Assembly: GCA_043817645.1 (NCBI GenBank)
Contig: JBDRGP010000024.1
Coordinates: forward strand, 412 to 64,411
Direction of reading: 5' to 3'
Length of the DNA stretch: 64,000 bases
Source: Candidatus Woesearchaeota archaeon
GTDB lineage: Archaea; Nanobdellota; Nanobdellia; SCGC-AAA011-G17; JACPIM01
Positions 397 to 63,567 of the stretch are shown piece by piece. Every line of letters starts with the position of its first letter. Positions within the stretch are counted from its first letter, which is position 1. The notes beneath the pieces were generated by a model that worked only from the letters and a program-made list of their open reading frames with translations, did not search any database and was not told the origin of the DNA. A program made the translations under genes and the position numbers.

Positions 397-1011
397 GTGG
401 GTGTTTTGAGTTTTTTTGGAAAAAAAGGAATTAGTCCTCTAATTGGAGTTGTTTTACTTATTGGATTTACAGTTGCTTTAGCTGCCATGATTATTACTTG
501 GGGTGGAGGATTCTTAAGAGGGACGCAAGAGAATGTTGGAAAGCAGGTTGATGTTGGATTGGAGTGTGCGAGGATTGATTTTAAGGTTCTTGGTGTTGGT
601 TGTGGGGATGATATTTCTGAATATTCCTGTATAGATTCTCAATGTTCTGGCGGTCCGTTTGATGGTACGGGGTGTACTGCTAATGATGAATGTTCTGGTC
701 ATGATTTAACGAGGGTGAGAGTCCTTAGCAATACTGGTGTAGAGATTAAAGGTTTTGTGATCAGGGCCACAGATTATCTTGGTCAAGTGATTGTTAGTGA
801 TGATATTGATGATGTTCTTGTTCCGTTTGGTTCAGTCAATGCTGTTTTTGATGAAGTTGATGGTCTATTAAGGGCTGAGAACCCTACAAAAGTTGAAATG
901 TTTGCTAAGGTTCAAGTTGGAAACCATCCAATAGAGGTATGCGAAGTGGGAAGTGAGAAATTTAATGTGCCAAGTAGCCATGATTGTAGAACCCAAACCC
1001 CGCCACCTTAA
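397..1011 (+). CDS. secreted pilin-like protein with class III signal peptide and Cys-rich C-terminal module
   Basis: GTG start. N-terminus FFGKKG|ISPLIGVVLLIGFTVALAAMI has a short basic stretch followed by a hydrophobic helix typical of archaeal prepilin/archaellin-like signals. Middle part is Cys-rich (CGDDISEYSCIDSQCSGG..GTGCTANDECSG). Confidence 0.5.
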   Translation: MGVLSFFGKKGISPLIGVVLLIGFTVALAAMIITWGGGFLRGTQENVGKQVDVGLECARIDFKVLGVGCGDDISEYSCIDSQCSGGPFDGTGCTANDECSGHDLTRVRVLSNTGVEIKGFVIRATDYLGQVIVSDDIDDVLVPFGSVNAVFDEVDGLLRAENPTKVEMFAKVQVGNHPIEVCEVGSEKFNVPSSHDCRTQTPPP

Positions 1012-1035
1012 TAGTTTATCAAAGGATTTGATAAA

Positions 1036-1092
1036 ATGACACTAATAATAGCTCTTGGTGGAAATGCGGGTTTAAGAGATCATTCTGAATAG
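1036..1092 (+). pseudogene. duplicated 5' fragment of the carbamate kinase gene (encodes MTLIIALGGNAGLRDHSE*)
   Basis: atgacactaataatagctcttggtggaaatgc matches arcC start at 2222 (atgacaataataatagctttgggtggcaacg) at about 27/31 nt. Confidence 0.6.
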
Positions 1093-1105
1093 CAAGGTTT
1101 ATATA
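1093..1105 (+). promoter_or_regulatory. archaeal BRE/TATA promoter (caaggTTTATATA) for the MNT-HEPN operon
   Basis: aaggtttatatact matches the consensus that recurs upstream of many genes in this window. It lies ~37 nt upstream of the ATG at 1142. Confidence 0.5.
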
Positions 1106-1114
1106 CTAAAAAAG

Positions 1115-1144
1115 GGATAATATTATCCTGAAAAAAGGATAATG
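1115..1144 (+). promoter_or_regulatory. putative operator: perfect 14-bp palindrome GGATAATATTATCC plus an extra half-site GGATAAT overlapping the start codon
   Basis: Seen directly between the TATA box and the ATG of the nucleotidyltransferase gene. A position like this is typical of TA autoregulation sites. Confidence 0.4.
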
Positions 1145-1756
1145 TTAACTGCTAAAGAATTAAGAATTGTGGATTTATTTCGAAAGGATCCTTTTGTGAA
1201 TTTTACTATTAGGAAATTGATGAGCCATATTGATACTAGGTCGTATAGTTGGACTTATCAGGCTATAAAAAAGCTACAAAAAGAAAAAATTGTGTTGCTT
1301 ACAAAAAAAGGGCAAGGTCAGTTGTGTAGCATTAATTTAGATGAGCCGAGAAGTATTGTCTATCTTTCATTATTAGAAGAACTTAATGCCTTAGGCAAGA
1401 AAATACCGAACTTGGGTAAATTGATTGGAATAATGCCTGCGGATTTCCATATCTTGATTATAGGAGGGAGTTATGCTGATAACACTTTTACTAAAAAATC
1501 GGATATGGATGTAGTTGTTATAATTGATAAAAAAGAAGAAAAAAAGTGGTTATTGAATAAATTATCGAGTGAGGGGGATTTGATGATACCTCATTTGCAT
1601 GCTTATGTTTTTACTAAGGATGAATTTTTAGAAATGTTGATAAATAAAGAGGCTAATTATGGCAAGGAAATAGAAAGAAAACATTTAATAATTTCAGGAG
1701 CTGAGCTTTATTTTAAGATTTTAAAAGAGGCAATGGAAAGTGGATATAAGCGTTAA
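1142..1756 (+). CDS. minimal nucleotidyltransferase (MNT-type; candidate antitoxin or AMPylating partner of HEPN)
   Basis: Pol-beta-like NTase motif IIGGSYADNTF..KSDMDVVVI (GS..x..D.D). Overlaps the downstream HEPN gene by 17 nt. Confidence 0.7.
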   Translation: MLTAKELRIVDLFRKDPFVNFTIRKLMSHIDTRSYSWTYQAIKKLQKEKIVLLTKKGQGQLCSINLDEPRSIVYLSLLEELNALGKKIPNLGKLIGIMPADFHILIIGGSYADNTFTKKSDMDVVVIIDKKEEKKWLLNKLSSEGDLMIPHLHAYVFTKDEFLEMLINKEANYGKEIERKHLIISGAELYFKILKEAMESGYKR

Positions 1757-2225
1757 GCAATATTTAGAAAGAGCTGAAAATGAGTTAAGAGTTTCAACTA
1801 TCCTTAAAAACCTGTCTGAGTCTAATTCGGAGGAAAAAGCAAATCTGGGCGGGAGAAAGGAAGATACTTTTTACAGCTCGGTTATCTCTCATGCTTATTA
1901 TGCTATATTTTATTCTGCTAAGGCGATACTTTTGAGTAAGAATATTGAAACGGATGCTCCAGAAGTGCACAAAAAGACTTTGGAGGAGTTTAAGAAACAT
2001 TTTGTGGATTCTGGCATTTTGGATTTGGAATTATTAAAGATATATAATGAGATGATTGTGAGAGCAGATGAGCTTCTTGGACTTTATCAGATTGAGAAAA
2101 GTAAAAGAGGGCGATTTGTCTATAAGACTATTCCTCAGGCAAATGTTGAGCCGGCTGAGGAGTCTATTGCTCATGCTAAAAAGTTTGTTAGCCATATTAA
2201 ACAGATTATCGAGGGAGAGGTATGA
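1740..2225 (+). CDS. HEPN domain protein (candidate toxin of the MNT-HEPN pair)
   Basis: HEPN-like helical protein with HAYYAIFYSAKAILL and a conserved R/H region. Its stop overlaps the arcC start (ATGA). Confidence 0.65.
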   Translation: MDISVKQYLERAENELRVSTILKNLSESNSEEKANLGGRKEDTFYSSVISHAYYAIFYSAKAILLSKNIETDAPEVHKKTLEEFKKHFVDSGILDLELLKIYNEMIVRADELLGLYQIEKSKRGRFVYKTIPQANVEPAEESIAHAKKFVSHIKQIIEGEV

Positions 2226-3145
2226 CAATAATAATAGCTTTGGGTGGCAACGTTTTAACTCCAAATGGAAAAAATACCTATAAGGAGTTGCTTTGGAATA
2301 TTAAAAAAGTATCCAAGGTATTGGCGAAATTAGTTAAGAATAACAAATTAGTTATTGTTACTGGTTCTGGACCACAAATAGGCGCATTAATACTACAAAA
2401 TGAGCTGGCAAAAAATAGGGTGCCTCCTATGCCTTTAGATGTTCTTGATGCTGAATTGGAAGGGGAGCTAGGCTATTTATTAGAAGAGCAGTTGAGTAAT
2501 CAATTGAGAGAGAATAAAATTAAGAGACCTATTGCGACTTTAGTTACACAAGTTTTAGTGAATAAAAAAGATAAGGCTTTTAGAAATCCTACAAAACCTA
2601 TAGGTCCTTTTTATACAAAAAAAGAGGCTGAGAAATTAAGAAAAAAAGGATATAAAATCATTAATGATGCTGGAAGAGGTTTTAGAAGAGTAGTTGCATC
2701 ACCTAAACCTGTTAAAGTTATTGAAGCTGAGACTGTTAAGAAATTAGTTAGTATTGGGACTGTTGTTATTACTTGCGGTGGTGGCGGGATTCCTGTTGTT
2801 ACTTCCAGAGGTAAATTGAAAGGTGTTGAGGGTGTTATTGATAAGGATAGAGCTTCTGCTTGTTTAGGTAAGAGTGTTAAGGCATCTACTTTGCTTGTTT
2901 TGACTGGTGTTGATTTTGTTTATTTGAATTATGGCAAGAAGAATCAGAAAAAAATCAAAAAGATGAGTGTGAAAGAGGCTAAGGGATATTTAGAAGAAGG
3001 GCAGTTTGGTGTTGGGAGTATGAAGCCTAAGATTGAGGCTGCGGTTGATTTTTTATTGAGTGGGGGTAAGAGAGTGGTTATTACTAGACCTAGATATGCT
3101 GTGAAGGCTTTGGACGGAAAGTATGGGACTTTGATTGTTAAGTAA
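2222..3145 (+). CDS. arcC: carbamate kinase
   Basis: IIALGGN, TGSGPQIG, PLDVLDAE, NPTKPIGPFY, GRGFRRVVASPKP and ITCGGGGIPVV are all hallmark carbamate kinase (amino-acid kinase family) motifs. Confidence 0.8.
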   Translation: MTIIIALGGNVLTPNGKNTYKELLWNIKKVSKVLAKLVKNNKLVIVTGSGPQIGALILQNELAKNRVPPMPLDVLDAELEGELGYLLEEQLSNQLRENKIKRPIATLVTQVLVNKKDKAFRNPTKPIGPFYTKKEAEKLRKKGYKIINDAGRGFRRVVASPKPVKVIEAETVKKLVSIGTVVITCGGGGIPVVTSRGKLKGVEGVIDKDRASACLGKSVKASTLLVLTGVDFVYLNYGKKNQKKIKKMSVKEAKGYLEEGQFGVGSMKPKIEAAVDFLLSGGKRVVITRPRYAVKALDGKYGTLIVK

Positions 3146-3487
3146 TCAGGGTTTGGATTCTATGATTAATTTATGGTCTTCTGGGTGGATATGCGCTTCC
3201 TCTCCGTCTTTTAGGTTTAGATAATCTGCTATTTTTTTGGGTATTCTTACTGCTAGCGAATTCCCTGTTTTTGTGATTTTAGTTGTTGCGCTCAGTCCCC
3301 ATAACCCTTTTTTTTTGGCTATTTCTTCTATTTTTTTGGTGGTATCGGAGTCAGTAAAGGTCTCCTTACATTTAGTACAGATTTCTGCTGGAAATTCACC
3401 TAGGTATACCCCAAACATATACTCTTTTACTTTCCCCTTTTTTAGGGTACCATTTTCACATATTGGACATCTTGTCATTTTTACCAC
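3146..3487 (-). CDS. Zn-ribbon (CPxC…CxxC) + SpoVT/AbrB-like DNA-binding protein, candidate antitoxin
   Basis: N-terminal CPICENG…CTKC zinc ribbon (YgiT/MqsA-like). C-terminal GNSLAVRIPKKIADYLNLK swapped-hairpin AbrB/MazE-like motif. Paralogs lie at 25518 and 34013. Its start overlaps the stop of an upstream DUF4258-like frame. Confidence 0.6.
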   Translation of the reverse strand: MVKMTRCPICENGTLKKGKVKEYMFGVYLGEFPAEICTKCKETFTDSDTTKKIEEIAKKKGLWGLSATTKITKTGNSLAVRIPKKIADYLNLKDGEEAHIHPEDHKLIIESKP

Positions 3488-3681
3488 TTTGGTTTTACAG
3501 TGATTATAAAATATTCATTATTTATCTTTTTGGTTACTACAGTGAAATAACTATAATGATGTAGTATTTTATTAGGTTTCTGTAATTCCTTTGCTCCTTT
3601 CTTGATTGCTTCCTCAACTTCGTTTACTGATATTCCTCTTTCGATCATTTGCGCTCTAGCCTGTTTGCTGTATTTTGGCAG
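3481..3681 (-). pseudogene. DUF4258-family toxin-like gene lacking a canonical start codon (CTG where the paralog has GTG)
   Basis: Frame encodes LPKYSKQARAQMIERGISVNEVEEAIKKGAKELQKPNKILHHYSYFTVVTKKINNEYFIITVKPKW*, homologous to the 34338..34541 product. The upstream TATA and AGGTGA-6nt spacing are conserved, but the aligned initiator is CTG. An in-frame ATG is only present at 3648. Confidence 0.45.
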
Positions 3682-3710
3682 ATGTAATCACCTGTAATTA
3701 CAGTACTTAC

Positions 3711-3725
3711 TTTAGTATATAAATG
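3711..3725 (-). promoter_or_regulatory. BRE/TATA promoter (minus strand) of the DUF4258/ZnR-AbrB module, followed by an AGGTGA ribosome-binding site at ~3691-3696
   Basis: catttatatactaaa on the minus strand. The architecture is homologous to 34573..34592. Confidence 0.4.
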
Positions 3726-3750
3726 TTTTGTTTTGAGTTACAGTAAGTTT

Positions 3751-3795
3751 ATGTAGGCTTTGGATGGGAAGTATGGAAGTTTGATTGTTAGGTAG
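3751..3795 (+). pseudogene. duplicated 3' fragment of the carbamate kinase gene
   Basis: atgtaggctttggatgggaagtatggaagtttgattgttaggtag matches arcC 3' end 3101..3145 (gtgaaggctttggacggaaagtatgggactttgattgttaagtaa) at about 37/45 nt. Confidence 0.6.
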
Positions 3796-3855
3796 TTTTT
3801 ACTCTTTTGAACGACAAACGAAAGATTTATATGTATGTATATGTATACGTAAATA

Positions 3856-4083
3856 ATGGTAAAATTAGTTTCTTTGTCAAATGATGTGTATGACCTATTG
3901 AAAAGTATGAAAAAAGAAAATGAATCTTTTTCACAGTTACTTAGGAGAAGAATTACTCTGAGAAAGAAAGTGAGCTTACTGGATTTGGCAGGTTCTATTA
4001 AGGATGGTAGTTTTGATAAGGCGATGGTGGCGGTTCTCTCTAAAAGAAATGTGAGATCAAAAGAGATATTGAGGTTTGATTAA
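3856..4083 (+). CDS. vapB: VapB-like antitoxin (small DNA-binding protein upstream of PIN gene)
   Basis: 75-aa basic protein. Overlaps the PIN-domain gene by 8 nt in typical TA arrangement. Confidence 0.5.
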   Translation: MVKLVSLSNDVYDLLKSMKKENESFSQLLRRRITLRKKVSLLDLAGSIKDGSFDKAMVAVLSKRNVRSKEILRFD

Positions 4084-4480
4084 ATTGTATCTATTAGATT
4101 CTGATGTTATTGTTGGTTTCTTGAGGGGTAATACTGGAGCGGTAGAAAAAATAAAGAATTTAGAGGAAAAAAATGCTTCTTTGTGTATCTCTTCAATATC
4201 GATTCATGAATTATTAGAAGGGGCTTATTTATCTTTAAAACCTAAAGAGAATTTGGAAGCGATTAGGGATTTTGTTAATAGGGTGGTTGTTTTGGATTTT
4301 ACTTTTGACTGTGCTAAGATCTCTGGTAAGATATCAGCAGATTTAACTAGGAAGGGTGAAAAGATTGGAGATATTGATGTCTTGTTGTCTTCTATTGCTA
4401 TATGTAATGGTCTTATTTTAGTTACTAGGAATACGAGGCATTTTAGTAAGATTAATATATTAAAATTGCTAGCTTGGTAA
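4076..4480 (+). CDS. vapC: PIN-domain ribonuclease toxin VapC
   Basis: N-terminal LYLLDSDVIVGFL (first PIN Asp) with conserved acidic residues further on (…ILVTRNTRHF). 134 aa. Confidence 0.7.
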   Translation: MIKLYLLDSDVIVGFLRGNTGAVEKIKNLEEKNASLCISSISIHELLEGAYLSLKPKENLEAIRDFVNRVVVLDFTFDCAKISGKISADLTRKGEKIGDIDVLLSSIAICNGLILVTRNTRHFSKINILKLLAW

Positions 4481-4483
4481 TAG

Positions 4484-5870
4484 GTACGTGTTTTGCTAAC
4501 CGAAAATAGAATATACTAGTTATAATTATTAATTTCATGGGGGGAGGAGGAAAGAGGTGCAGATACCCCAAGAATTAAAGGAACTCAGTAAAAGAGACTT
4601 GATAAGGATAATTCTTGATTTGCAGAAGAGGCTTGCAATATATGAGAATGCACATATTCCTTCTTCCAAGAAGAGATTTCCTGAGAGAAAGAAACCATCC
4701 AACAGCAAGATAGGTGCTCCAAAAGGACATCCGGGTACGACAAGAGAAAGGAAAGAGCCAACGGAGAGGATAGATGTAGAAGCAGTTCAGTGTAAGCATT
4801 GCCGTGATTTGCTGGATAAGCCATTTAAGCAAGAGAAGAAGGTAATAGAAGAGATACCAGACCCCCAACCAGTGAGAGTTATTGAATTTCTAATCGATCA
4901 CTATAAATGTCCTTCATGTAATGAAATAACAGTAGCTTCTCACCCAAGCTTACCTAAGGAAGGCACTTTAGGTAATAACTTACAGGCACAAATAGCTTTG
5001 ATGAAATACGAAGATAGACTGCCTCACAGAAAGATAGTACAAACACTAAACAGACAACATGATTTGGATTTAGCACCCAGTACAATACTAGAGGTGACAA
5101 ATAGGGTTGCCAAAAGAGTTGAACCTGAATACAATAAGATAAAACAAACAATAAGAAAGTCTCCTAATGTTTACTCAGATGAAACAGGACACAAAGTACA
5201 AGGGAAGAACTTTTGGTTATGGGGGATTGCAATTAAGATAGCAGTATTATTTGCTATAAGGAAGAAAAGAAGCAAAGAGGTTTTAGAGGAATTGCTTGGA
5301 GATAATTATAAGGGAATAATCTCATGTGATGGTTGGACTACATATTCCAAGTATTCGGATAACATTCAGAGATGTTGGGCGCATATACTGAGAGAAGCAG
5401 AATATTTAGCAGAACAACATGAATCTGCCAAGTTATTTTATCAGGAACTTAGAGAATTATATAACCTGGTAGACAGGGTTACAGAGCAAGATTCTCTAGA
5501 AGCAAGAAAGAGATTATACTTAAAGTGCATTGCTCAAATGGATAGATTAGTTGGAAGGATGGAAGCATATAAGGAATTACGTAAATTTGCAGTGAAGCTG
5601 GAGAATGGCAAGGTACATTTCTTTACTAGGGTTTTGTATCCTTTTGTAGAGGCTACTAATAACATTGCTGAGAGATCATTGAGGGAACCAATTGTACAGA
5701 GAAAGATTATCGGAACCCTAAGGAACGAGAAAGGTATCAGAATAACAGAAGTATTGCTTAGTGTGCTAATGACGTGGAGGATGCGAGGATTAAATACTTA
5801 TGGAGGATGCGAGGATTAAATACTTATGATGAGCTTAGAAGAGCCTTAAGCTCCTAAGCAAAACACGTAC
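4484..5870. mobile_element. IS66-family (ISBst12-like, single-ORF) insertion sequence with 14-bp perfect terminal inverted repeats and 8-bp target-site duplication GGTAATAG
   Basis: Left IR GTACGTGTTTTGCT (4484-4497). Right IR AGCAAAACACGTAC (5857-5870). Flanking direct repeats ggtaatag at 4476-4483 and 5871-5878. An 8-bp TSD is characteristic of IS66. Confidence 0.75.
4557..5819 (+). CDS. IS66-family transposase (TnpC-like)
   Basis: N-terminal leucine zipper. CxxC…CxxC zinc finger (CKHCRD…CPSCN). DDE region SDETGHKV, CDGWTTY, CWAHILRE and TNNIAERSLRE are IS66 signature motifs. Confidence 0.8.
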   Translation: MQIPQELKELSKRDLIRIILDLQKRLAIYENAHIPSSKKRFPERKKPSNSKIGAPKGHPGTTRERKEPTERIDVEAVQCKHCRDLLDKPFKQEKKVIEEIPDPQPVRVIEFLIDHYKCPSCNEITVASHPSLPKEGTLGNNLQAQIALMKYEDRLPHRKIVQTLNRQHDLDLAPSTILEVTNRVAKRVEPEYNKIKQTIRKSPNVYSDETGHKVQGKNFWLWGIAIKIAVLFAIRKKRSKEVLEELLGDNYKGIISCDGWTTYSKYSDNIQRCWAHILREAEYLAEQHESAKLFYQELRELYNLVDRVTEQDSLEARKRLYLKCIAQMDRLVGRMEAYKELRKFAVKLENGKVHFFTRVLYPFVEATNNIAERSLREPIVQRKIIGTLRNEKGIRITEVLLSVLMTWRMRGLNTYGGCED

Positions 5871-5919
5871 GGTAATAGTAAATATTTTTAAAGGTAGAAT
5901 TAACTAATTCTGTATATAC

Positions 5920-6036
5920 GGGAACGTAGTTTAACCCGGCTAGAATGAGTGGCTCCAGATATAAGGGTAAACCCTTATCAACCCAAGATAATCCAGGAGA
6001 GACCACTAGATCCAGGTTCAAATCCTGGCGTTCCCA
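5920..6036 (+). tRNA. tRNA-Trp (anticodon CCA) with a ~43-nt intron at the canonical 37/38 position
   Basis: 7-bp acceptor stem GGGAACG/CGTTCCC. T-arm CCAGG-TTCAAAT-CCTGG. Discriminator A followed by TTTT. Anticodon stem AGTGG/CCACT with loop CTCCAG[intron]A. Hand-folded. Confidence 0.6.
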
Positions 6037-6240: not shown

Positions 6241-7875
6241 ATGAAGAATATTGTGTTTGCAATTTTGGCTGTACTTTTGTTAGGATTGTCCTTGGTAACT
6301 GCTACTGGGTTGACTGCAACTAGTGTTGTTATTGAAGGTGTTCCTGGTGGAAGTGCTTACAGTACAACTTTGATTAGAAATGAAGGTACTGTAGATTTGA
6401 CAGATATAGAAATTGTCAAATCAAGAGTTGTTGGTGAGGAAGACTCTTCACAAAAAATAACAAAGGAAGCCTTTACAGTTTCACCAGCAGAGTTTGAACT
6501 TGATGCTGATGAAGAAAGAAGGGTTACAATAAGTGTTGACATTCCTGAGGGACTTACACCGCAGATTTATACTGGGGAATTTATTGTGAGATCCATGGGT
6601 GTTGATGTGCCTTTTGATGTAAGGGTTGTTGTAACTGAGAGTGTAGACATCCCTGAGATGCCATTTGTTTTTCAAGAAATTGAAGTTGATGGTGTTGATG
6701 CTTTGGGATCTGATTCTGTAGTTCATGTTGAGAGATCAAGCACTGTAGATATTAGAGCAGAATTTATGTCTAATGTTAATAGTGATAAAGTTAGAGTGAA
6801 GGCTTGGATAGGCGGATTTGAGTTTGGAGATGTTTCAGACCGAACTGGAATTTTCACTGTTGAGCCTGGTCTTATATACTCTAAGACTCTGCATTTAGAA
6901 ATACCAGAAGATATTGACTTGGATGATGATGAGTTCAGATTGCATGTTGAAATCTTTGATAATGATGGTGTTTCAAGAGAAGAGACTTTCAGGCTTGGGG
7001 TTAGAAAGGAGAGACATAGTTTGAATATTATAGATACTATCTTCTTTCCGAGTAATACTGTTGAAGCTGGAAGATCTTTGAGAACTGAAGTTAGAGTTGA
7101 GAACCTGGGAGAAATGAAGGAGGAAGATGTGCTTGTTAAAGTAAGCATTCCTGAGCTCGGTATAAGTGCTAAGGAATTTATTGACGAGCTAGTTCCTGAG
7201 GAAAATACCTGGGATGATGAGGAAGAGACTTCAGATTCTGTAGACCTTATCTTATTTATTCCAAGCGATGCAGAAACTGGTGAGTATTTGGTAGAGATTG
7301 AAGTTGAGTATAATAGAGGCCATGACACTATTACAGGAACAAGAAGAGTTTTTGTTGAAGGTGTTAGTGGGGTTGGTGTTATAAGCCCTGCTGAGGCTAT
7401 TGTTAGTGTTGATTTGTCCTCTCAGAATATTGCTCAAGGTTCAGAAATACCATATAAGCTAATGTTAGCTAATCTTGGAGATGCTAGAATTGTTTACTCT
7501 ATAGATGTTGCTGGAACAGAAGGATGGGCAACAACTAGAACTAGTGCAGCATTTGTAAGTGTTGATAGCAACCAAGCTGGAGAGATCACTTTGTTCTTAA
7601 TAGCTAATGACGATGCTTCTGTTGGAGCTAAGGCATTTACAGTTAGTATATTGGCTAATGGTGGAGAGGTTAAGCAACTTAATTTGAATGCTAATATCGG
7701 AGAGAAAGGAGTAACAGGAACTGGATTCCAAGAAATACAGAGAGGATTGCTAGTTGGATTTGTTATCTTAGTAGTAGTCTTGATAATCTTGGGATTAGTG
7801 ATAGCTTTCAAGAGAGTTGGAGAAAAACCAAGTTCTGAAGAGCCAGAATCAGTAGAAAGTCAAACTTACTACTAA
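6241..7875 (+). CDS. cell-surface protein with signal peptide, CARDB/DUF11-like beta domains and C-terminal TM anchor
   Basis: MKNIVFAILAVLLLGLSLVTA signal peptide. Repeated VTISVD / VEIEVEY beta-rich segments. C-terminal LVGFVILVVVLIILGLVIAF TM followed by an acidic tail. The ORF track extends the start to 6205. Confidence 0.55.
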   Translation: MKNIVFAILAVLLLGLSLVTATGLTATSVVIEGVPGGSAYSTTLIRNEGTVDLTDIEIVKSRVVGEEDSSQKITKEAFTVSPAEFELDADEERRVTISVDIPEGLTPQIYTGEFIVRSMGVDVPFDVRVVVTESVDIPEMPFVFQEIEVDGVDALGSDSVVHVERSSTVDIRAEFMSNVNSDKVRVKAWIGGFEFGDVSDRTGIFTVEPGLIYSKTLHLEIPEDIDLDDDEFRLHVEIFDNDGVSREETFRLGVRKERHSLNIIDTIFFPSNTVEAGRSLRTEVRVENLGEMKEEDVLVKVSIPELGISAKEFIDELVPEENTWDDEEETSDSVDLILFIPSDAETGEYLVEIEVEYNRGHDTITGTRRVFVEGVSGVGVISPAEAIVSVDLSSQNIAQGSEIPYKLMLANLGDARIVYSIDVAGTEGWATTRTSAAFVSVDSNQAGEITLFLIANDDASVGAKAFTVSILANGGEVKQLNLNANIGEKGVTGTGFQEIQRGLLVGFVILVVVLIILGLVIAFKRVGEKPSSEEPESVESQTYY

Positions 7876-9685: not shown

Positions 9686-11121
9686 TTTAGTTCTAATGAT
9701 ATATCTTGGGTGTATTTTAACCCGTTTTTTAATGCAATTTCTGCTTTTTGTAGTTCTGCTCCTATGTCCAAAGCGTGACCTATTTCTGAAATTACCTGAG
9801 CGTGAGCTAATTTGGCTATAATTTTCATTGTTGCGTCATCTTCATAAACCTTGATCGGGTTACCTGATAGGTCTTTATGGGTGACTCTTATTTTGCTATC
9901 TATTATTTCTATTCTAAAGTTTCCTTTTGGATCGAATCTCAGAGTGTAAGATTGTCTATATCTTTCTGTTATTTCTTTAGCGTCTGGCCAATTTTTTTCA
10001 TATAAGTGTGCTGAGCCTGAGATTATGGTTAGTGTGCCTAGTTTTAAGGGTGTTTCTTTTGAGATTTCTTTTACTATTATTCCCTGCAATTTTCTTAATG
10101 CTAGTGCATTTCTTGGCCAGGCTTCATACATGTCATTGCTTCTGATGTATGTAGTTAAATGTAGGATATCATCTTGCACTAATGGATGCACAAAATTTAT
10201 GCAGGGTGGTTCGTCTCCTCCAGAATCTTTATCATAATCCCATGTAAAGGCGATTGCTCTTCTTTGGTAAGGTTTTTTTCTTAACGTATCAATGATTTTT
10301 TGAATTTGATCTACTTTGCTTCCATCTTTTAGCTCTGCTTCTCTTAATCTTTGACCGTATGTGTAAGTTACGTCTGGAATTTTTTTACTGGTTGTTACTT
10401 GAGGAATATAGTCTTCTAGTTCTTCTTTTGTGAACTGAAAGTATTCTTCCCATTTTGGGTTGTTAGGATCTTCTTCTTCGATAACAACACTGAGGTTGAT
10501 TAATTCTTTTTGATCCCCGCCATAAGAAGCTTTTTTTACTGTACCGAACCTCATAATATTGTGCAGGAGTTCCAACCAGGCTTTTCCAACTGTTTTTTCT
10601 CTTATTTTGTGAATGCTGGGATCTGTTGGATATTTCTCTGGAGCTTCTATTTTGTTTTCTGGAAAAATTTCTGGAGAGCCATAACTCTCTTTTTTTTCTA
10701 AAGATTTTATTTTTTCAATTACTTCTTCTGATTGTTTTTCTCTCATGTCAATTATCTCAATGTTCTTTCTGAAATTTTCAATTGCTTCTTTTGGAATTTC
10801 TTTATGAATCCTTGCGATTTTTATTCCTTTGATATTATGGTTTTCGTCAATGCCCTTCTCTTTTAGTGTTAGGAGAGATCCTGCTGATTTTGAAAGGTCT
10901 TGACCTATGAGAATTAAATACCTAATGTTTTTATTTGATAAACAATTTCTGATTAAGAAACTTATGCCTCCGTTGAAATAAAGTTGGCCTGCTGCAGCGT
11001 ATAATGAAGGGTCTATTTTTGAAGTAATTACGTTTCTTGGACTCCAGAGTGTTACTATGCCAATATTAGACTCTAAGTTTCCTACAAGAATATTTTCTTT
11101 TTCATAAATAGGCCAATCCAA
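9682..11121 (-). CDS. thyA: thymidylate synthase (ThyA-family) core fused to an N-terminal MtrA-like domain and a C-terminal DUF4346-like domain
   Basis: ThyA motifs RRAIAFTWD, PPCINFVH (catalytic Cys), YIRSNDMYEAWPRNALAL and SGSAHLYEKN. N-terminus DWPIYEKENILVGNLESNIGIVTLWS…NKNIRYLILIGQD resembles the MtrA WP…G.Y / NPNIRFLILCG fold. Confidence 0.6.
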   Translation of the reverse strand: MDWPIYEKENILVGNLESNIGIVTLWSPRNVITSKIDPSLYAAAGQLYFNGGISFLIRNCLSNKNIRYLILIGQDLSKSAGSLLTLKEKGIDENHNIKGIKIARIHKEIPKEAIENFRKNIEIIDMREKQSEEVIEKIKSLEKKESYGSPEIFPENKIEAPEKYPTDPSIHKIREKTVGKAWLELLHNIMRFGTVKKASYGGDQKELINLSVVIEEEDPNNPKWEEYFQFTKEELEDYIPQVTTSKKIPDVTYTYGQRLREAELKDGSKVDQIQKIIDTLRKKPYQRRAIAFTWDYDKDSGGDEPPCINFVHPLVQDDILHLTTYIRSNDMYEAWPRNALALRKLQGIIVKEISKETPLKLGTLTIISGSAHLYEKNWPDAKEITERYRQSYTLRFDPKGNFRIEIIDSKIRVTHKDLSGNPIKVYEDDATMKIIAKLAHAQVISEIGHALDIGAELQKAEIALKNGLKYTQDISLELK

Positions 11122-11197
11122 AAAACCGCCCCCTTTTAATTAGTGAGATTTAAGATTTGTTTATATAAATATCTGTGGGGAAAAATGAATTTTAGGA

Positions 11198-11623
11198 CTA
11201 TTTGATGCCTGTATGTCCCAGGCCGCCTTTCCTATCGGTCTCTTCTAGTTTTTTTGTTTCTTCTATTTCTGCTTTTAAATAGGGTTGAATGATCATTTGG
11301 GCTATCCTGTCATTTTTGTTTATTTTGAAGGGTTCTTCTCCTAAGTTTTTTAGGATGATTTTGACTTCTTCTCTGTATCCTGCGTCTAAAACTCCTCCTA
11401 AGACTGTTATATCTTTTTTTGCTGCCAGACCGGATCTGTCCCATATTAAGCCTACATGATTTTTTGGGATTGCTACCTTTATCCCGGTTTTTATGACTTC
11501 TTTTTTTCCCGCTTCTATTGTTTTTTCTTCTGCGGATCTTAGATCGAATGCTGCATCGTCCTCATGAATGTAACCTGGTAGAGAGATTTCGGGATCTAAT
11601 CTTTGAATTCTGACTTTATTCAT
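11198..11623 (-). CDS. dut: dUTP diphosphatase
   Basis: 141 aa with the dUTPase motifs PGYIHEDDAAFDLRS, GLIWDRSGLA, GVLDAGYRGE and RIAQMII. Confidence 0.7.
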   Translation of the reverse strand: MNKVRIQRLDPEISLPGYIHEDDAAFDLRSAEEKTIEAGKKEVIKTGIKVAIPKNHVGLIWDRSGLAAKKDITVLGGVLDAGYREEVKIILKNLGEEPFKINKNDRIAQMIIQPYLKAEIEETKKLEETDRKGGLGHTGIK

Positions 11624-11638
11624 TTTTTATTTGGTTAC

Positions 11639-12049
11639 TTAAGGTTGGTCTTTTATGATTTTTAAAATAATTCTTCTTTGTTTTGGTCCATCTAACTCTA
11701 CCAGCATTGGAGATTGCCAGGTTCCTAGTTGTAATTGATTGTTTTTAATTGGAATTGTTTCTGAAGGACCTAAAATAGCTGCTTTTATGTGTGCTGCTCC
11801 GTTATTATCTATTCTGTCATGTTTCCAGACTCCTTGTGGAATCAATTTGTCTAGAGCTTTTAGAAAATCGTCTGGAATGTTTGGGTCTGCGTTTTCATTT
11901 ATTATTATTGTTGCTGTGGCGTGCGGTACGAAAATATGGAGAATTCCTTCTACTACATTGGAGTTTTTTATTATTTCTTCTAGTTCATGTGAGATGTCTA
12001 CGCACTCTTCTTTTTTAGAGGTTTTTATTGTGAACTCCATTAAGTTCAA
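11639..12049 (-). CDS. YjbQ/UPF0047 family protein (secondary thiamine-phosphate synthase-like)
   Basis: ILHIFVPHATATIIINENADP and RIDNNGAAHIKAAILGPSETIP are typical YjbQ motifs. Confidence 0.55.
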   Translation of the reverse strand: MNLMEFTIKTSKKEECVDISHELEEIIKNSNVVEGILHIFVPHATATIIINENADPNIPDDFLKALDKLIPQGVWKHDRIDNNGAAHIKAAILGPSETIPIKNNQLQLGTWQSPMLVELDGPKQRRIILKIIKDQP

Positions 12050-12059
12050 ATAGGTCCTA

Positions 12060-12071
12060 GAGGCTTATAAA
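12060..12071 (+). promoter_or_regulatory. putative TATA element (ggCTTATAAAcc) for the 12116 gene
   Basis: ~45 nt upstream of the ATG. Confidence 0.3.
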
Positions 12072-12115
12072 CCTATTCCAAAAGCCTTTTAAATTAGAAA
12101 ACTTAGTAAATTGTT

Positions 12116-12403
12116 ATGGATAAAGTGAGTAAAGAAAAATTAGATAAATACTTCTCGGTTACTCGTAATGCTTTGGATGAGGCTAGGGAATCTCCTGAAA
12201 ATGTTGAGATTAATGATTCTACAAGGAAGCATTTTATAGATACGGTTGAGAGATATCTGAAGGATGCTAAGCATTTTGAAGAAAAAGGTGATTTGGTTAA
12301 TGCTTTTGCTGCTTTGAACTATGCTCATGGATGGTTGGATGCTGGGGCTAAATTGGGTGTTTTTGATGTGAATAACCCTAAGTTGTTTGCTGGTGTTGAT
12401 TAA
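12116..12403 (+). CDS. small conserved archaeal protein (DUF357-like), function unknown
   Basis: 95-aa helical protein with an NAFAALNYAHGWLDAG motif. Confidence 0.4.
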   Translation: MDKVSKEKLDKYFSVTRNALDEARESPENVEINDSTRKHFIDTVERYLKDAKHFEEKGDLVNAFAALNYAHGWLDAGAKLGVFDVNNPKLFAGVD

Positions 12404-12515
12404 GGGTTTGAAATTATTAAACAAAGAAAAAAATTTGTTTATAGTAATATTTCTTAAGGAGTAGTTTGATCGGATAGGTCTATTGTTAAAAATCCTCTTT
12501 TTTGTAAGACATGTT

Positions 12516-12722
12516 TTAAAGCGTCCTTACCTTCCTCTGAAGTGTTCCTTCTTCTTTGTGGAATGGGTATTTCTTGCGCGAATGAGCGCCGCTGCTCCCG
12601 CAGGACAATACTATTGTTTTATCGCTTATCTCTGCTCCAAGACCCATCCGTGCACCAAATCCACTAACTCTCGTTTTGTACTGTTGGGCTACTCTATCAA
12701 CTTTTTCTAAATATCCTGTCAT
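12516..12722 (-). CDS. small hypothetical protein in a locally GC-rich segment
   Basis: MTGYLEKVDRVAQQYKTRVSGFGARMGLGAEISDKTIVLSCGSSG. The GC-rich island could alternatively be a structured RNA. Confidence 0.3.
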   Translation of the reverse strand: MTGYLEKVDRVAQQYKTRVSGFGARMGLGAEISDKTIVLSCGSSGAHSRKKYPFHKEEGTLQRKVRTL

Positions 12723-12815
12723 TTTTTGCCCCCGTATATATCCCATATATAATATATTGTTAGATTGATTTTTTGAAGGATTGGTTTATAAAGTTTTTGT
12801 TCTTATTTTTAATTT

Positions 12816-13280
12816 ATGATTTTGGTAGTTACAGGCAGTGCTGGAGTGGGAAAGACTAGGGTAGCTAGGGCTCTGGCTAAGAAATATGAGTTGAAGTATA
12901 TTGATGTGAATGCTCTTATTAAGAAGAACAAATTATATGATTCTTATGATAGGAAATTTAAGAGTTATGTGGTTGATGTTGGGAAATTAAAAAAGTTTTT
13001 AGTTGATTTAGTAAAGAAAAATAAAAATCTTGTTTTGGATTCTCATTTAAGCCAGTATTTAGATAAAAAGTATGTTGATTTGTGCGTTATTGTGAAATGC
13101 GATATCAAGGTTTTGAAAAAAAGGTTGGAGAAAAGGAGGTATAGCGAGAATAAGATTAGAGAGAATTTAGATGCAGAGATATTTGATACTTGTTTGGTTG
13201 AAGCTACTGAGTTAGGTCATAAGGTTAAGGTAATTAATACTAGTAAAGGATTTAAGTTAGAAAAATTAGGCAGGAATTAA
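12816..13280 (+). CDS. Fap7/adenylate kinase 6-like NTPase
   Basis: MILVVTGSAGVGKTRVA P-loop at the N-terminus. Size and layout match archaeal Fap7 (AK6). Confidence 0.6.
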   Translation: MILVVTGSAGVGKTRVARALAKKYELKYIDVNALIKKNKLYDSYDRKFKSYVVDVGKLKKFLVDLVKKNKNLVLDSHLSQYLDKKYVDLCVIVKCDIKVLKKRLEKRRYSENKIRENLDAEIFDTCLVEATELGHKVKVINTSKGFKLEKLGRN

Positions 13281-13589
13281 AATCTCTTCCTCTTTGGTTA
13301 ATTTATTAACTTCAGAATCAACAACAGACCAATAATAATTAATGAATTTCTCTACTTGTGGGTTTTCTCTATTTAGTTTATACATTTTGGCTTTTCCTAC
13401 ATCTCTTGTATGTACTACTATCTGCCTTACAACGAATTCTTTCCAGATTTCTTTTAGGGCAGTGTAACTAACTTCTGAAAATTTGGCAATATCTTTCATT
13501 GAATAGTCAAATTCAGAATGAAGTATTAAAAAAGTCCATATTCTGTTTTTTACGGTATTTCCTTCTAATTTTAAAAAAGTTGATGCCAT
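13266..13589 (-). CDS. winged-helix transcriptional regulator (paralog of 57747..58073)
   Basis: FLILHSEFDYSMKDIAKFSEVSYTAL…HTRDVGKAKMYKLN aligns with LIEGRDFDYTLTDIAENAGVSWGTL…KTRDIGRAKLYKIN. A TATA box lies at ~13611-13619 on the minus strand (leaderless). Confidence 0.5.
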   Translation of the reverse strand: MASTFLKLEGNTVKNRIWTFLILHSEFDYSMKDIAKFSEVSYTALKEIWKEFVVRQIVVHTRDVGKAKMYKLNRENPQVEKFINYYWSVVDSEVNKLTKEEEILIPA

Positions 13590-45767: not shown

Positions 45768-47603
45768 TTGGGCGATATGGCTAAAATAAAAAAGGGGGTG
45801 GAAAAAGGCACTCCTATGGATACTGAATTAGCAGAGATTGATAAGAGATTAGCTAGGCTTAGTGGAAAAGAGGAACCCGAAGTTTCGAGTTTTGAGGAAA
45901 AGAAGAAAACTAAGACCTTTAAGAAAAAAATAGAAGATAAAAAAAACAAGGTAGTTGGAACAAGGACGAAGTTAAAGCCTAAAAAGGTTTTAAAGAAAGT
46001 TCGGTCTTTAGACTTTGAATTAGCTGATATTGATAGGAGATTAGCTGTGCTTGATGGAAGAGAGGAACCTGAAGTTTCGAGTTTTGAGGAAAAGAAGAAA
46101 ACTAAGACTTTTAAGAAAAAAATAGAAGATAAAAAAAGTAAGGTGATTGGGACGAAAGTGAAGTTAAAGCCTGAGCTATTGAAAGTTAAAGCCGGGCAAA
46201 AAGATTTGTTGAAAGAGCCTAAAAAGGTTTTAAAGAAAGTTAGGTCTTTACCTAAAGAAAAATTTACTTCTTTGGATAGGGAAAAGAAAGAGGATATTTC
46301 CTTTAAGGATGAGATTAGGACTAAAAAGGAAGTTTTAAAGAAAGATGTGGCTACTAGTCTAAAAAAGAAAAGGGAAGTTTCTATTCCAAAAAAGAAAAAA
46401 ATATCTAAGAAGAGTTTTTTAGGGTTTAAGAAAAAAAGTGATAAAGCTTCTACTCTTAAGTCTCTTTCTTTAAGTGAAAAAAAGAAAGATTTGTTGAAAA
46501 AGAAGATTCCAAAGAAAAAAACTTCTGTTGTGAGTTCTGGAATGCTCAAAAAGAAAATGGAATCTAAGTTGGGCAGAGATATTTCTAAACCTGTTGAGAT
46601 AGGAGAAGAAAAAGCTGAAGAGGAAAGTGGTAAATCAAAAACACTTCTAAAAAAAGTTAAGGATAAAAAATCAAAATTACGTTTTCCTTTGGAGAAGAAA
46701 AAAGAAGAGGGTCCTACAGAGAAAGTTTCTAAAAAAGAAGAACCTAAGGGAGTAGAGGGGAAGGAAGAAAAACTAGTAAAAAAAACTGAAGAAAACACCC
46801 AAGAGGAAAAAGATGAAAAGAAGATTGGTAAAAAACCTTTAAAAAAATCTTCTGATTTAAAGATTACTACCTTTTTTGATAAATTAGTTGATGATGTTGA
46901 AAAGAGAGGCGCTGTGGGACTATCAGAGATAGCTGAGACTTATAAAATAGATAAAAAAACAGCGCAAGAATGGGCTGAGATATTGAAGGATAATGATCTT
47001 GTTGATTTTAATATTCCTCCTTTTGGTGAGCCAGAACTTAGGAAGAAGCGTTTAAAGTTAGAAAAGGGTGAGAAGGGAGAAAAGGTAGAAGATAAAGAGA
47101 AGACAAAAAAGGAAAAACCTAAGAAGAAATTAATTAAAAAATTTCTTTTAGGAGGTAGCAAAAAATATGTTGTAATGGGGATATTGGGTTTAGTTGTGAT
47201 TATCTCCATTGCTAGTTTTTTTATATTTTCGGGGCGAAGTGGAGAAAGGACTTTTGCGGTTCCTTTTATTGAAGGAACTCAAGAAGAAGAACAAGTGAGA
47301 GAGATAATAGATAAAGAGGATGTTTTATTGGCATTTTCTGGAAATGGATCGTATGATTGTAGAAGCGAAGATGGAAGTACTCGATATCTTATTAAGAACG
47401 TGTTTATAAAAATAGAAGAGTTGGATGGTTCATCAAAGGTAGTGATAAAAAATGATAAGATATATACTTTTAATGTTAATACTGGGTTATGGGTTGAGTC
47501 TGAATTAAGAGAGGGAATTGCTGTTCCTGGGTCCGGAGTTTATCCTAAAACTGTATTAGAATGTCAAGGAGAGGAGATAGATGAGAGCGAATTTGATACC
47601 TAA
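45768..47603 (+). CDS. Lys-rich repeat protein with HTH-like segment, single TM and C-terminal extracytoplasmic domain (pilus-locus specific, function unknown)
   Basis: ~470 aa K/E-rich low-complexity region containing a ~190-200-bp internal tandem duplication (45820-46010 vs 46020-46205). Then AVGLSEIAETYKIDKKTAQEWAEIL, the TM segment YVVMGILGLVVIISIASFFIF, and a ~115-aa C-terminal domain. Confidence 0.5.
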   Translation: MGDMAKIKKGVEKGTPMDTELAEIDKRLARLSGKEEPEVSSFEEKKKTKTFKKKIEDKKNKVVGTRTKLKPKKVLKKVRSLDFELADIDRRLAVLDGREEPEVSSFEEKKKTKTFKKKIEDKKSKVIGTKVKLKPELLKVKAGQKDLLKEPKKVLKKVRSLPKEKFTSLDREKKEDISFKDEIRTKKEVLKKDVATSLKKKREVSIPKKKKISKKSFLGFKKKSDKASTLKSLSLSEKKKDLLKKKIPKKKTSVVSSGMLKKKMESKLGRDISKPVEIGEEKAEEESGKSKTLLKKVKDKKSKLRFPLEKKKEEGPTEKVSKKEEPKGVEGKEEKLVKKTEENTQEEKDEKKIGKKPLKKSSDLKITTFFDKLVDDVEKRGAVGLSEIAETYKIDKKTAQEWAEILKDNDLVDFNIPPFGEPELRKKRLKLEKGEKGEKVEDKEKTKKEKPKKKLIKKFLLGGSKKYVVMGILGLVVIISIASFFIFSGRSGERTFAVPFIEGTQEEEQVREIIDKEDVLLAFSGNGSYDCRSEDGSTRYLIKNVFIKIEELDGSSKVVIKNDKIYTFNVNTGLWVESELREGIAVPGSGVYPKTVLECQGEEIDESEFDT

Positions 47604-58073: not shown

Positions 58074-58177
58074 GTGTTTTTAGAAGATTATAGTATATAT
58101 AAATCTTTTCTTTTTGTACATTGATATACAGTGAGGTTAGGTTAGTTTTATATACCTTGGTGTTTTTAGGGCCTTTT

Positions 58178-58456: not shown

Positions 58457-58538
58457 GAGCATGTTAGTGAGGTTATAGGTTAGTATTTGCTATATCTCAC
58501 AGAAATCTTTAAATATTCTCTGCTTGTAGTTGTAGAGC

Positions 58539-60440: not shown

Positions 60441-60582
60441 AAAACCTCTTTTCATTCACCTTCAAATTCTAATAAACAAAAAACATTATAGTCTTTTAAT
60501 TTTTCTTTGCCTTTCAAGTCTGGTAGATTGATATCTATTCTCTAAAATACACATTCCAGACGACGCATACGTGACAAACGCG

Positions 60583-60592: not shown

Positions 60593-60619
60593 ATAAAGTG
60601 ATAAGAATTGGTATTAAGG

Positions 60620-63528: not shown

Positions 63529-63567
63529 CAAAAACTTTTGCCCACTTCGGCACTTTCTCAACTACTG

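Follow-up and report, generated by a model that had tools for sequence, protein, structure and literature searches.

How has the carbamate kinase gene arcC come to lie between displaced copies of its own two ends, with a toxin-antitoxin (TA) cassette on either side? In the window (the whole 64-kb stretch of DNA analysed here, from a tiny DPANN archaeon of the Woesearchaeota) the functional gene occupies 2222-3145 on the plus strand. Its product matched AA_kinase and TIGR00746, scoring 361.2 against the TIGR00746 cutoff of 358.25 with residues 2-307 covered, i.e. full length, and homologues aligned with it from end to end. A relic of the resident arcC 5' end was found at 1036-1067 (plus strand), identical to 2222-2253 at 26 of 32 positions. 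ATG begins both copies, which read MTLIIALGGNA (relic) and MTIIIALGGNV (functional gene); the relic possibly reaches ~1074 with a 3-nt indel, and its reading frame stops at 1090-1092. A relic of the 3' end lies at 3755-3795 (plus strand, start possibly 3751). Its best block matched 3105-3145 at 35 of 41 positions, and 3751-3795 matched 3101-3145 at 37 of 45. Here the stop codon closes both copies, the peptides being ALDGKYGSLIVR and ALDGKYGTLIVK.

The initial annotation had reported both imperfect copies and named chance matching as the alternative. In 300 Markov shuffles of the 64 kb, with both strands searched, the chance maxima were 23/32 for the 5' piece and 28/41 for the 3' piece, and the next-best real matches within the window reached 21/32 and 25/41. 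A direct-repeat search of 900-4600 placed both pairs at the top (D1, 43 nt, 86%; D3, 29 nt, 86%). The longest identical run in the repeats was 11-13 nt, and no similarity continued outward of the start or stop codon in either pair. Chance similarity or an assembly chimera is hardly credible as a source of these pieces: although the short peptides alone gave weak tblastn E-values (0.16 and 1.1), the nucleotide matches beat 300 of 300 shuffles, and position, strand and codon register agree. Two other assemblies (ENA ERZ27247128 and Logan SRR6514274) are 100% identical to the window across the region, so that three assemblies share one sequence and an assembly artefact is excluded. The displaced copies of the arcC start and end are confirmed as an observation.

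As the initial annotation had described, each TA cassette sits between a functional gene end and the displaced copy of that end. Cassette 1 (MNT-HEPN; 1083-2221, plus strand; Pfam and NCBIfam matches) comprises a TATA-like box (1098-1105), a wHTH-MNT antitoxin gene (1142-1756, NTP_transf_2) and a HEPN toxin gene (1740-2225). The HEPN tail is shortened at the junction, where it is joined to GGAGAGGT plus the arcC ATG, and the HEPN stop and arcC start overlap as ATGA. Cassette 2 (DUF4258/ZnR-AbrB; 3146-3735, minus strand; Pfam and NCBIfam matches) carries a ZnR-AbrB antitoxin gene (MazE/AbrB plus YgiT zinc finger; 3146-3487) and a DUF4258 gene (3481-3687), both on the minus strand, with the AbrB stop directly adjoining the arcC stop (3145/3146). 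These two junctions were also correctly given in the initial annotation. Overlapping or abutting genes are common in this compact genome (e.g. 8716/8713 and 13280/13266). The control region of cassette 2 contains a putative operator palindrome, CTGTAATTACAG, at 3692-3703 and a TATA element at 3716-3723; promoter and operator are conserved. The DUF4258 toxin of this copy, placed at 3481-3681, looks degenerate (start TTG to CTG; His to Gln).

Further downstream, the arcC-to-tRNA spacer holds a VapBC cassette (3826-4480, plus strand; VAPB_antitox and PIN matches; vapB 3856-4083, vapC 4076/4085-4480), around which no flanking direct repeat was found. It is followed by an IS66-family element (4484-5870, plus strand; DDE_Tnp_IS66 match; terminal inverted repeats GTACGTGTTTTGCT) with an 8-bp target duplication, GGTAATAG, at 4476-4483 and 5871-5878. 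All three predicted TA pairs (MNT-HEPN, DUF4258/AbrB and VapBC) consist of adjacent small genes with cognate domains and a promoter of their own. The TA cassettes contain only TA or small genes, and transposase, integrase and other mobility genes are absent from them. An IS or transposon origin of the TA cassettes was rejected, as terminal inverted repeats, a short fixed duplication and a transposase occur only in the separate IS66 element. Nor is an integron origin supported, as 900-4600 contains neither attC imperfect palindromes nor such inverted repeats. The initial annotation had raised conserved att-like motifs at the junctions; this idea found no support, given that the cassette ends are not conserved, that no inverted repeats or attC-like sites were seen in the same interval and that no partial copy of the tRNA was found.

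Homologues of the cassettes are widespread. Cassette 1 is 71% identical in nucleotides over 1083-2201 to a cassette in L084, in a different genomic context. Cassette 2 shows 77% identity to its counterparts in L123 and L133 over window positions 3151-3728 and 3158-3735, and in L144 the identity continues to 3144. For the cassette 2 antitoxin there are 587 homologues, the best 120 of which are 73-86% identical (DPANN); the best ArcC match is 67% identical. Homologous cassettes are similar in nucleotides from promoter to stop codon and no further, and related MNT-HEPN and DUF4258-AbrB cassettes occupy unrelated genomic sites with no shared target or motif. These features mark the cassettes as mobile cargo without machinery of their own.

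Cassette-free arcC, which the initial annotation had proposed to look for in related genomes, was found at the syntenic position in L118 and L120. Both have the order pilin, arcC, 66-71 nt, intron-containing tRNA, 550-aa gene, with no cassettes, and both carry a single arcC at this site; ArcC is 60-65% identical in protein. The native neighbours are recognisable in the window as well. Upstream lies an archaeal pilin-like gene (397-1011, plus strand; Pilin_N match), which shares 41% identity with the gene that precedes arcC in L118, and downstream an intron-containing tRNA (5920-6036, plus strand; Rfam RF00005, 51.3 bits), whose orthologue follows arcC after 66-71 nt in both relatives. VapBC is missing from that spacer. 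Since the relatives carry arcC there free of cassettes, the arcC-to-tRNA interval, with three TA cassettes and IS66, is an insertion hotspot, and in this the initial annotation was right. The upstream flank of the 5' relic is similar to the arcC upstream flank of L118, and the TAG stop and downstream flank of the 3' relic are similar to those of arcC in L118 and L120. The relics mark the former position of arcC, because they retain its native flanks: seen against the syntenic relatives, the displaced resident sequence directly borders the incoming block on its outer side.

The scar is not confined to arcC: counting the two there, the window has four, and others lie on four further DPANN contigs (L003, L099, L102 and L086). 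Scanning 508 ORF ends with the stop codon as anchor yielded 4 outliers, and the upstream control yielded 0. Within the window the repeats are 27, 32, 41 and 105 nt long, and at the other loci they measure 21-98 nt; that two of the four window scars fall on one gene is only mildly unusual (~8% by chance). At a rad50-like gene (55702-57750, plus strand; SMC/Rad50-type matches) the functional 3' end (57724-57750) pairs with a stop-aligned relic at 58457-58483 on the plus strand (24/27 identical; scan score 19, background maximum 14). The cassette beside it (57747-58456) has two genes, a wHTH gene (57747-58073, minus strand; HTH_24 match) and a 111-aa ORF (58121-58456, plus strand) for which no family match was found.

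The fourth scar, a relic of ~105 nt of an APRT 3' end (60452-60556, minus strand), was recognised by alignment and translation and shows in-frame indels and one stop; the translated pair reads DLKGKEKLKDYNVFCLLEFEGE and DLKGRERLENKGYKVFSLLQFEGE, a stop closing each. It lies next to a convergent gene pair (60608-62035) formed by a 307-aa DPANN gene (60608-61531, plus strand) and APRT itself (61505-62035, minus strand; Pribosyltran match). Their 3' ends overlap by 27 nt in the window and by 24 nt in L152 and L154, two distant DPANN genomes in which the pair is conserved as a unit. No APRT relic was found in the equivalent gap of L152 and L154; the extra relic is seen only in the window. Because the pair is conserved and the relic is confined to the window, the functional APRT 3' end and its 307-aa neighbour arrived together, and gene part and foreign DNA were already linked in the donor.

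In all six diverged scars the repeat has a start or stop codon as its exact limit, and in none does it run across that codon. The only hint of microhomology at these joints is a TTGAAGA/TTGAAAA overlap at L102, and the L099 relic lies within an array of pilin paralogues. Exact repeats flank some related cassettes, of 21 nt at L086 (21/21), 19 nt at L133 (19/19) and 11 nt at L123, of which the L123 repeat barely exceeds shuffled controls (p 0.04-0.08); they look like target duplications or microhomology joints. At L124, next to an MNT-HEPN cassette, the 3' end of FtsY is duplicated as a 29-nt exact repeat with 32-nt spacing.

We then compared each relic with its functional counterpart. Over seven scars (342 aligned nucleotides) the differences were 33.5 synonymous to 26.5 nonsynonymous. 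Neutral drift is expected to give 24% synonymous changes (P=5e-8 for the excess), and 38% would be expected if an exact duplicate had formed and the relic alone had then decayed (P=0.003; window alone P=0.014). The relics, 70-90% identical to the functional ends, retain their stop codons, their replacements are of the conservative kind, and indels that keep the frame are seen at APRT and possibly at L099 and at the arcC 5' end. In this small sample the pairs appear to differ as two functional alleles do, with dN/dS well below 1. As the databases contain neither a donor-type nor a resident-type arcC allele (the nearest homologue is 67% identical), the case for a displaced allele rests on the substitution patterns in these 342 nt.

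We regard it as somewhat better supported than not that a related allele, together with an adjacent cassette, displaced the resident gene, with one joint inside the resident gene end, as in homology-facilitated illegitimate recombination (HFIR). The synonymous and conservative changes, the in-frame indels and the APRT end that travelled with its neighbour speak for displacement by a related allele. HFIR was reportedly described by de Vries and Wackernagel in 2002 and by Prudhomme et al. in 2002. The arcC-like pieces would be the start and the end that the resident gene had at first, still beside their native flanks. The donor DNA would have come from a related lineage with an arcC roughly 80-90% identical and a TA cassette directly attached, entering through host recombination in one or two events. 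One exchange would have occurred in, or been anchored by, the homologous gene body, and the other joint, illegitimate or based on short homology, would have formed inside resident arcC, 32 nt past its start and 41-45 nt ahead of its stop. The incoming end would now serve arcC, and the resident end, by now a dead relic, would have been shifted outward. Neither a transposase nor an integrase would take part, and the cassettes (promoter plus two genes) would be passive cargo. They would persist because they are addictive and interlocked with arcC through the HEPN stop/arcC start overlap and the AbrB stop adjoining the arcC stop. That there was a donor, how many events took place and in which order, and which recombination pathway they followed are all inferred. 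Had a single event made both arcC joints, neither of them could count as a classical homologous crossover. In the bacteria studied, sequences that diverge by 10-25% recombine inefficiently, and we know of no studies of recombination in DPANN. The recurrence of the scar at other genes and in related archaea suggests that these genomes gain genes via ordinary recombination without an integrase.

The initial annotation had proposed an insertion with long target duplication, which we favour less. A staggered break over the gene terminus would have copied 20-100 nt exactly, and the dead copy would have drifted since. This reading has a real but clearly smaller chance of being correct. It needs no donor that already bears the arrangement, its anatomy is that of restriction-modification units (no mobility genes, variable repeats, often spanning a start or stop; PMC2853133), and the exact repeats at L086, L133 and L124 are what it predicts. 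Against it stand the excess of synonymous and conservative changes over that expected from relic-only decay and the in-frame indels; near-identical repeats only at L086 and L133, with 70-90% identity otherwise; and six start- or stop-aligned scars ending exactly at the codon. Moreover, the APRT junction is an arrangement conserved in DPANN, which random insertion would not recreate. Recombination between arcC paralogs, the other mechanism in the initial annotation, is very unlikely. Tandem duplication and TA insertion, with most of the surplus copies then deleted, would yield same-strand, collinear fragments, and the L099 relic does sit among pilin paralogues; however, the window contains no other arcC-like sequence, its arcC pieces are only terminal, arcC occurs just once at this site in the relatives, the relic flanks are native single-copy flanks, and three copies plus four precise deletions would be required.

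Many archaeal and bacterial integrative elements bear a copy of their target gene end, restoring the gene on integration, and TA modules usually outlast the other genes of such elements. The cassettes could then be what is left between attL and attR after loss of the integrase and most cargo, and the relics are oriented as this would demand. We nevertheless consider it improbable: there is no tyrosine or serine recombinase in the 0.5-1.2 kb units or between the relics, the longest identical run is only 11-13 nt, the targets of related cassettes are unrelated and have no motif in common, cassette homology ends at promoter and stop codon with no space for att arms, no partial tRNA copy exists here, and an integrase would have to be lost at every independent scar. 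Equally improbable is a dedicated mobility mechanism aiming small cassettes at ORF boundaries, e.g. as circles with portable gene-end homology. The codon-exact repeats of all six diverged scars, the very high conservation of cassette 2 across DPANN and the precise excision, gene intact, that the repeats would permit agree with it. Exact boundaries need no special mechanism, though, because genes in this compact genome typically abut or overlap; in addition, the cassette homologues are tied to no single target gene, and neither circular forms nor dedicated genes were observed. It is doubtful, if a little less so, that small DPANN cassettes, TA above all, have a full life cycle of targeting ORF termini, carrying a host gene end along as a portable copy, leaving as a circle via the repeats and re-entering at the homologous gene end in another cell. 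If true, this would be a recombinase-free class of mobile element, with the relics as its 'att' scars and host genes interlocked yet intact.

The tiny genomes of DPANN archaea, for which there is no cultivated genetics, contain few mobile elements that can be recognised, yet TA and defence modules are numerous in them. If allelic displacement is correct, the scars would be a sequence-level record of how such modules enter, linked to a related host-gene allele, via host recombination and free of integrase. The relics are easily searched for and could be used to count and date recombination between lineages of uncultivated archaea. In the scars, selfish cassettes can moreover be seen to have become physically locked to a metabolic gene through overlaps between start and stop codons. 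The 'long target duplication' puzzle, known from restriction-modification systems, now also concerns TA systems and Archaea, and the scars provide a testable alternative explanation for it.

Among known systems, integron gene cassettes, archaeal integrons included (PMC9668308), are likewise small, promoter-poor or self-contained, often TA and arrayed, but they differ from the cassettes here, which have no attC-like palindromes, no IntI/attI and a TATA promoter each. Integrative elements with att in a target gene end also bracket their insert with a direct repeat of that end, and the element-borne copy restores the gene and may differ from the displaced one; the units here, of 0.5-1.2 kb, lack an integrase, a conserved core and target specificity. 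Restriction-modification units without mobility genes are flanked by variable-length direct repeats at the start or stop of host genes (2000, Gene 259:99; Furuta et al. 2010, PMC2853133). These repeats are near-identical (e.g. 44/46, 47/47), match the single copy at the empty site of a conspecific genome and span the start or stop codon (PMC2853133). Shared features are an addiction-type unit without mobility genes, variable repeats of tens of bp and an intact host gene; the scars here differ in 73-90% identity, synonymous bias, exact codon ends, TA or small-gene cargo and DPANN hosts. For T6SS effector-immunity modules and Rhs/CDI toxin tips, displacement by HFIR that leaves orphan 3' ends has been proposed (Kirchberger et al. 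2017, PMC5361080). Those orphans are long, often functional (immunity genes, toxin tips), restricted to 3' ends and found in bacterial polymorphic-toxin loci, whereas the scars here, for which HFIR is our interpretation only, are 27-105 nt long, dead, derived from both 5' and 3' ends and located at archaeal housekeeping or metabolic genes. In both, on this interpretation, an allele with linked foreign genes has a homologous anchor on one side and an illegitimate joint on the other, and the resident 3' end is pushed downstream and persists there as an orphan.

The ends of the carbamate kinase gene arcC (2222-3145; TIGR00746 equivalog, 361.2 bits against a cutoff of 358.25) are each found twice in the window, as the initial annotation had claimed. 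The 5' copy (1036-1067) is identical to arcC 2222-2253 at 26/32 positions and both begin with ATG, the translations being MTLIIALGGNA and MTIIIALGGNV. At the 3' end, the 45-nt span originally described is identical at 37/45 positions, the best block being 3755-3795 against 3105-3145 (35/41); both copies are closed by a stop codon, following ALDGKYGSLIVR and ALDGKYGTLIVK. Both alignments exceeded all 300 Markov shuffles of the window (maxima on either strand 23/32 and 28/41) and the next-best real matches to the arcC ends in the window (21 and 25), and the two pairs ranked first in a repeat search of 900-4600. As the arcC region is also 100% identical in two independent assemblies, chance and assembly artefact were excluded as sources of the copies. 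A 7-mer (GCTTTGG) common to both arcC termini was judged to be a coincidence of Ala-Leu-Gly coding. An ENA contig (L001) matches the window over 9.4 kb, after which GC-rich foreign sequence starts mid-gene; its tail (9841-12630) was rejected as a strain breakpoint and represents a chimeric assembly join.

ArcC was assigned to a Candidatus Woesearchaeota MAG, and there was no close strain to compare because the nearest other ArcC in a homologue search is only 67% identical. Two distant relatives, L118 and L120 (ArcC 65% and 60% identical), are syntenic: pilin-like genes, arcC, 66-71 nt, the same intron-containing tRNA and a surface protein of 550 aa that shares 64% identity with its counterpart in the window, followed in L118 by glutaredoxin, thymidylate kinase and ThyX. 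The introns of the orthologous tRNAs differ in length; the tRNA of the window (5920-6036) was found by Rfam and missed by ARAGORN on account of its intron. Neither relative carries TA cassettes at the syntenic site, so arcC does occur without them in related genomes. In the window, the pilin gene lies 24 nt from the 5' relic (we use relic for a short displaced copy of a gene end), and the upstream flank of this relic (AAAGGATTTGATAAAATG) resembles that of arcC in L118 (AAAGGTAAAGATAATG). TAG is the stop of the 3' relic and also of arcC in L118 and L120, whereas the functional arcC is terminated by TAA; a TTTACT..TTTT stretch follows the relic much as in the relatives, and once VapBC and the IS66 element are removed the spacer to the tRNA measures ~65 nt, matching the relatives. 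The native flanks, the TAG stop and the spacer thus place the relics where the arcC ends originally lay, and the window lineage acquired three TA cassettes and one IS afterwards. Recombination between arcC paralogs, an origin suggested by the initial annotation, was discarded, since the window holds no second arcC and relatives are single-copy.

The gene content described for the region (MNT/HEPN, ZnR-AbrB/DUF4258, VapBC, IS66, tRNA) was reproduced. In the 5' cassette (TA1), wHTH-MNT occupies 1142-1756 and HEPN 1740-2225, its stop overlapping the arcC ATG; in the 3' cassette (TA2, minus strand), the zinc-ribbon-AbrB antitoxin (3146-3487) abuts the arcC stop and DUF4258 extends to about 3681. 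Both junctions are as first reported. TA1 shows 71% nucleotide identity to a cassette in a different genomic context (L084) over 1083-2201; the similar stretch begins shortly ahead of the TATA box and stops inside the HEPN 3' end. The window HEPN is about six codons shorter than that of L084 and is fused to GGAGAGGT and the arcC ATG, a junction with the appearance of a recombination joint. No relatives of the MNT gene were found in viral contigs. Over about 3150-3735, TA2 has 77% nucleotide identity to its counterparts in L123 and L133; a TATA box and a 12-nt palindromic operator fall within this block, and in L144 the identity continues as far as the antitoxin stop (3146). The TA2 antitoxin has 587 homologues in several unrelated genomic contexts, the best 120 of the 587 being 73-86% identical, and is thus far more conserved than ArcC (best homologue 67%); the family appears to spread among DPANN by horizontal transfer. 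Because similarity is high and contexts are unrelated, we regard the cassettes as horizontally mobile cargo.

The att-like junction motifs envisaged earlier were not found: TA1 and TA2 contain no recombinase genes, terminal repeats or attC-like sites, and there were no attC-like sites or terminal inverted repeats at the cassette ends (900-4600). A 25-nt inverted match between the pilin and AbrB 3' ends (987-1011/3138-3162) was at chance level and was dropped. No repeat flanking VapBC and no partial tRNA copy, a sign of a tRNA-targeted element, was found. The TA2 toxin has CTG (3679-3681, minus) where L123 and L133 carry a TTG start, and Gln (3661-3663, minus) for a conserved His (KQAR versus KHAR). 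The antitoxin is intact, and with start and His lost the toxin may be decaying already. An intact IS66-family element (4484-5870; terminal inverted repeats GTACGTGTTTTGCT) straddles the region of the vapC stop codon, with a perfect 8-bp target duplication (GGTAATAG, span 4476-5878), and the insertion is therefore recent.

The arcC observation is real and broader than the initial annotation recognised. When every ORF end in the window was compared with its own flank, four outliers (54, 25, 19 and 17) exceeded the background maximum of 14. The highest was rejected, being a tandem IS-end duplication at 63.2-63.9 kb; the remaining three are scars, that is, a functional end, a cassette or neighbour gene, and a relic. 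A fourth, more diverged scar came from a stop-anchored scan. The last 27 nt of a rad50-like gene (55702-57750) recur stop-aligned (24/27) at 58457-58483, beyond a wHTH and 111-aa gene pair, and an APRT gene (61505-62035, minus) has a relic of ~105 nt at 60452-60556. In other DPANN contigs we found relics of 98 nt behind a 131-aa membrane ORF (L003) and of 33 nt behind a MazEF-like pair (L102), a 5' relic of 42 nt preceding an MNT-HEPN pair in which the HEPN stop and the gene start overlap exactly as at arcC (L099), and exact repeats of 21 nt around an MNT-HEPN pair (L086) and 19 nt around a TA2-type cassette (L133). Among 508 ORF ends in low-GC loci, the stop-anchored scan gave four downstream scores of at least 15 and none in the upstream control (maximum 11), a frequency that is not an unbiased estimate as loci were picked via arcC and cassette genes. 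Of 32 MNT-HEPN loci listed, window included, 22 had both flanks scorable, and only L099, L086 and the window exceeded background (at least 17 versus at most 13). Most such loci lack a relic, so the scar is not obligatory. Two of four scars falling on one gene among ~70 has a chance expectation of ~8%; the double arcC scar may reflect a hotspot before the tRNA or a single event bringing TA1-arcC-TA2 together.

Several other repeats were rejected as scars. Those in bacterial arcC loci and at window positions 19626/20357, 45824-46250 and 39146/39850 were paralogues or internal protein repeats, and a 17-mer in L144 (1108/2698) was not terminal. At 63225-63870 there is a tandem repeat of a 304-nt segment (period 343 nt, 96% identical), made up of the 3' terminus of a transposase-like ORF (63759-63974, minus) and sequence downstream of it; it resembles an IS end that has been duplicated. 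L052, a contig of a Verrucomicrobia MAG, has a 38-nt gene 3' end with its stop (11357-11394) that recurs 1.4 kb downstream (12790-12827, 37/38); this may be the same scar type in a bacterium. An exact 29-nt repeat with 32-nt spacing, effectively tandem, duplicates the 3' end of an FtsY/SRP54-family gene directly beside an MNT-HEPN cassette (L124, 1099-1160); L123 and L125, syntenic in other respects, lack this repeat. In L086, exact short pieces of a second HEPN gene (6316-6735) lie on both sides of the MNT-HEPN cassette (4331-4413 and 5633-5730): an internal match of 51 nt (~55 nt by eye), one piece of 21 nt and one of 60 nt from the 3' end. Such a patchwork suggests a TA island in which the template was switched repeatedly or illegitimate joints became nested. 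A second wHTH (13266-13589, minus) shares 15 nt with the 3' end of a kinase gene (12816-13280) and by eye resembles the wHTH of the rad50 cassette; this junction showed no relic.

The 307-aa ORF beside APRT was initially taken as a new cassette, which its homologue contexts contradicted. The family is DPANN-wide, and the gene is convergent with APRT in the window (60608-62035, 27-nt overlap) and in L152 (4001-5416) and L154 (3161-4573), both with a 24-nt overlap and no APRT relic. Recognising a conserved APRT partner changed our mechanistic reading: as the pair is conserved and L152 and L154 are relic-free, the functional APRT end and its neighbour would have arrived as a pre-existing unit, displacing the resident end, which would now be stranded beside a 142-aa gene. 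The protein (~300 aa in the family) is DPANN-specific and has no family assignment; its C-terminus (VDFF..VEFH..) gives a faint impression of a PD-(D/E)XK/DUF559-type nuclease.

Integrase elements (no integrase, shared core or target specificity), integrons and transposons (defining features absent) were rejected, and two integrase-free models fit the scar anatomy. In one, the target would be duplicated exactly at insertion and the copy would then drift; in the other, a related allele with its attached neighbour would recombine in, one joint falling within the resident gene end. Target duplication would agree with R-M-type insertions, whose repeats are likewise located at gene starts or stops (PMC2853133). 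Exact short AT-rich repeats (11-21 nt) at other loci can be read as target duplications but equally as microhomology joints, and because they can be read both ways we retain the model as the less likely one.

Three results favour displacement over target duplication. Pooled over seven scars, relics and functional ends differ by 33.5 synonymous and 26.5 nonsynonymous changes, while a neutral model expects 24% synonymous (P=5e-8) and decay in the relic only, 38% (P=0.003; window only, P=0.014); relic amino-acid replacements are conservative and indels in frame are present. The repeats never pass the start or stop codon, and the stop is in register in all four 3' relics outside APRT. Most telling is the APRT end and 307-aa gene as a pre-existing DPANN unit. 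We infer displacement from these comparisons of sequence.

arcC now lies behind HEPN with overlapping stop and start codons, and it probably shares a transcript with TA1 or is driven by a TATA-like ATATTAAA located in the 3' end of HEPN; transcription of TA2 would be directed at the 3' end of arcC, and no spacer separates the two. If a relic recombined with its functional end, the cassette would be removed precisely and the gene would remain intact as a hybrid, a loss against which TA addiction would select. In the literature searched, we came across no description of such a scar in archaeal TA cassettes. The scars are best filed under known integrase-free insertion and displacement processes, here involving neighbour genes as well as TA cassettes of DPANN archaea. 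[quoted passage not shown]
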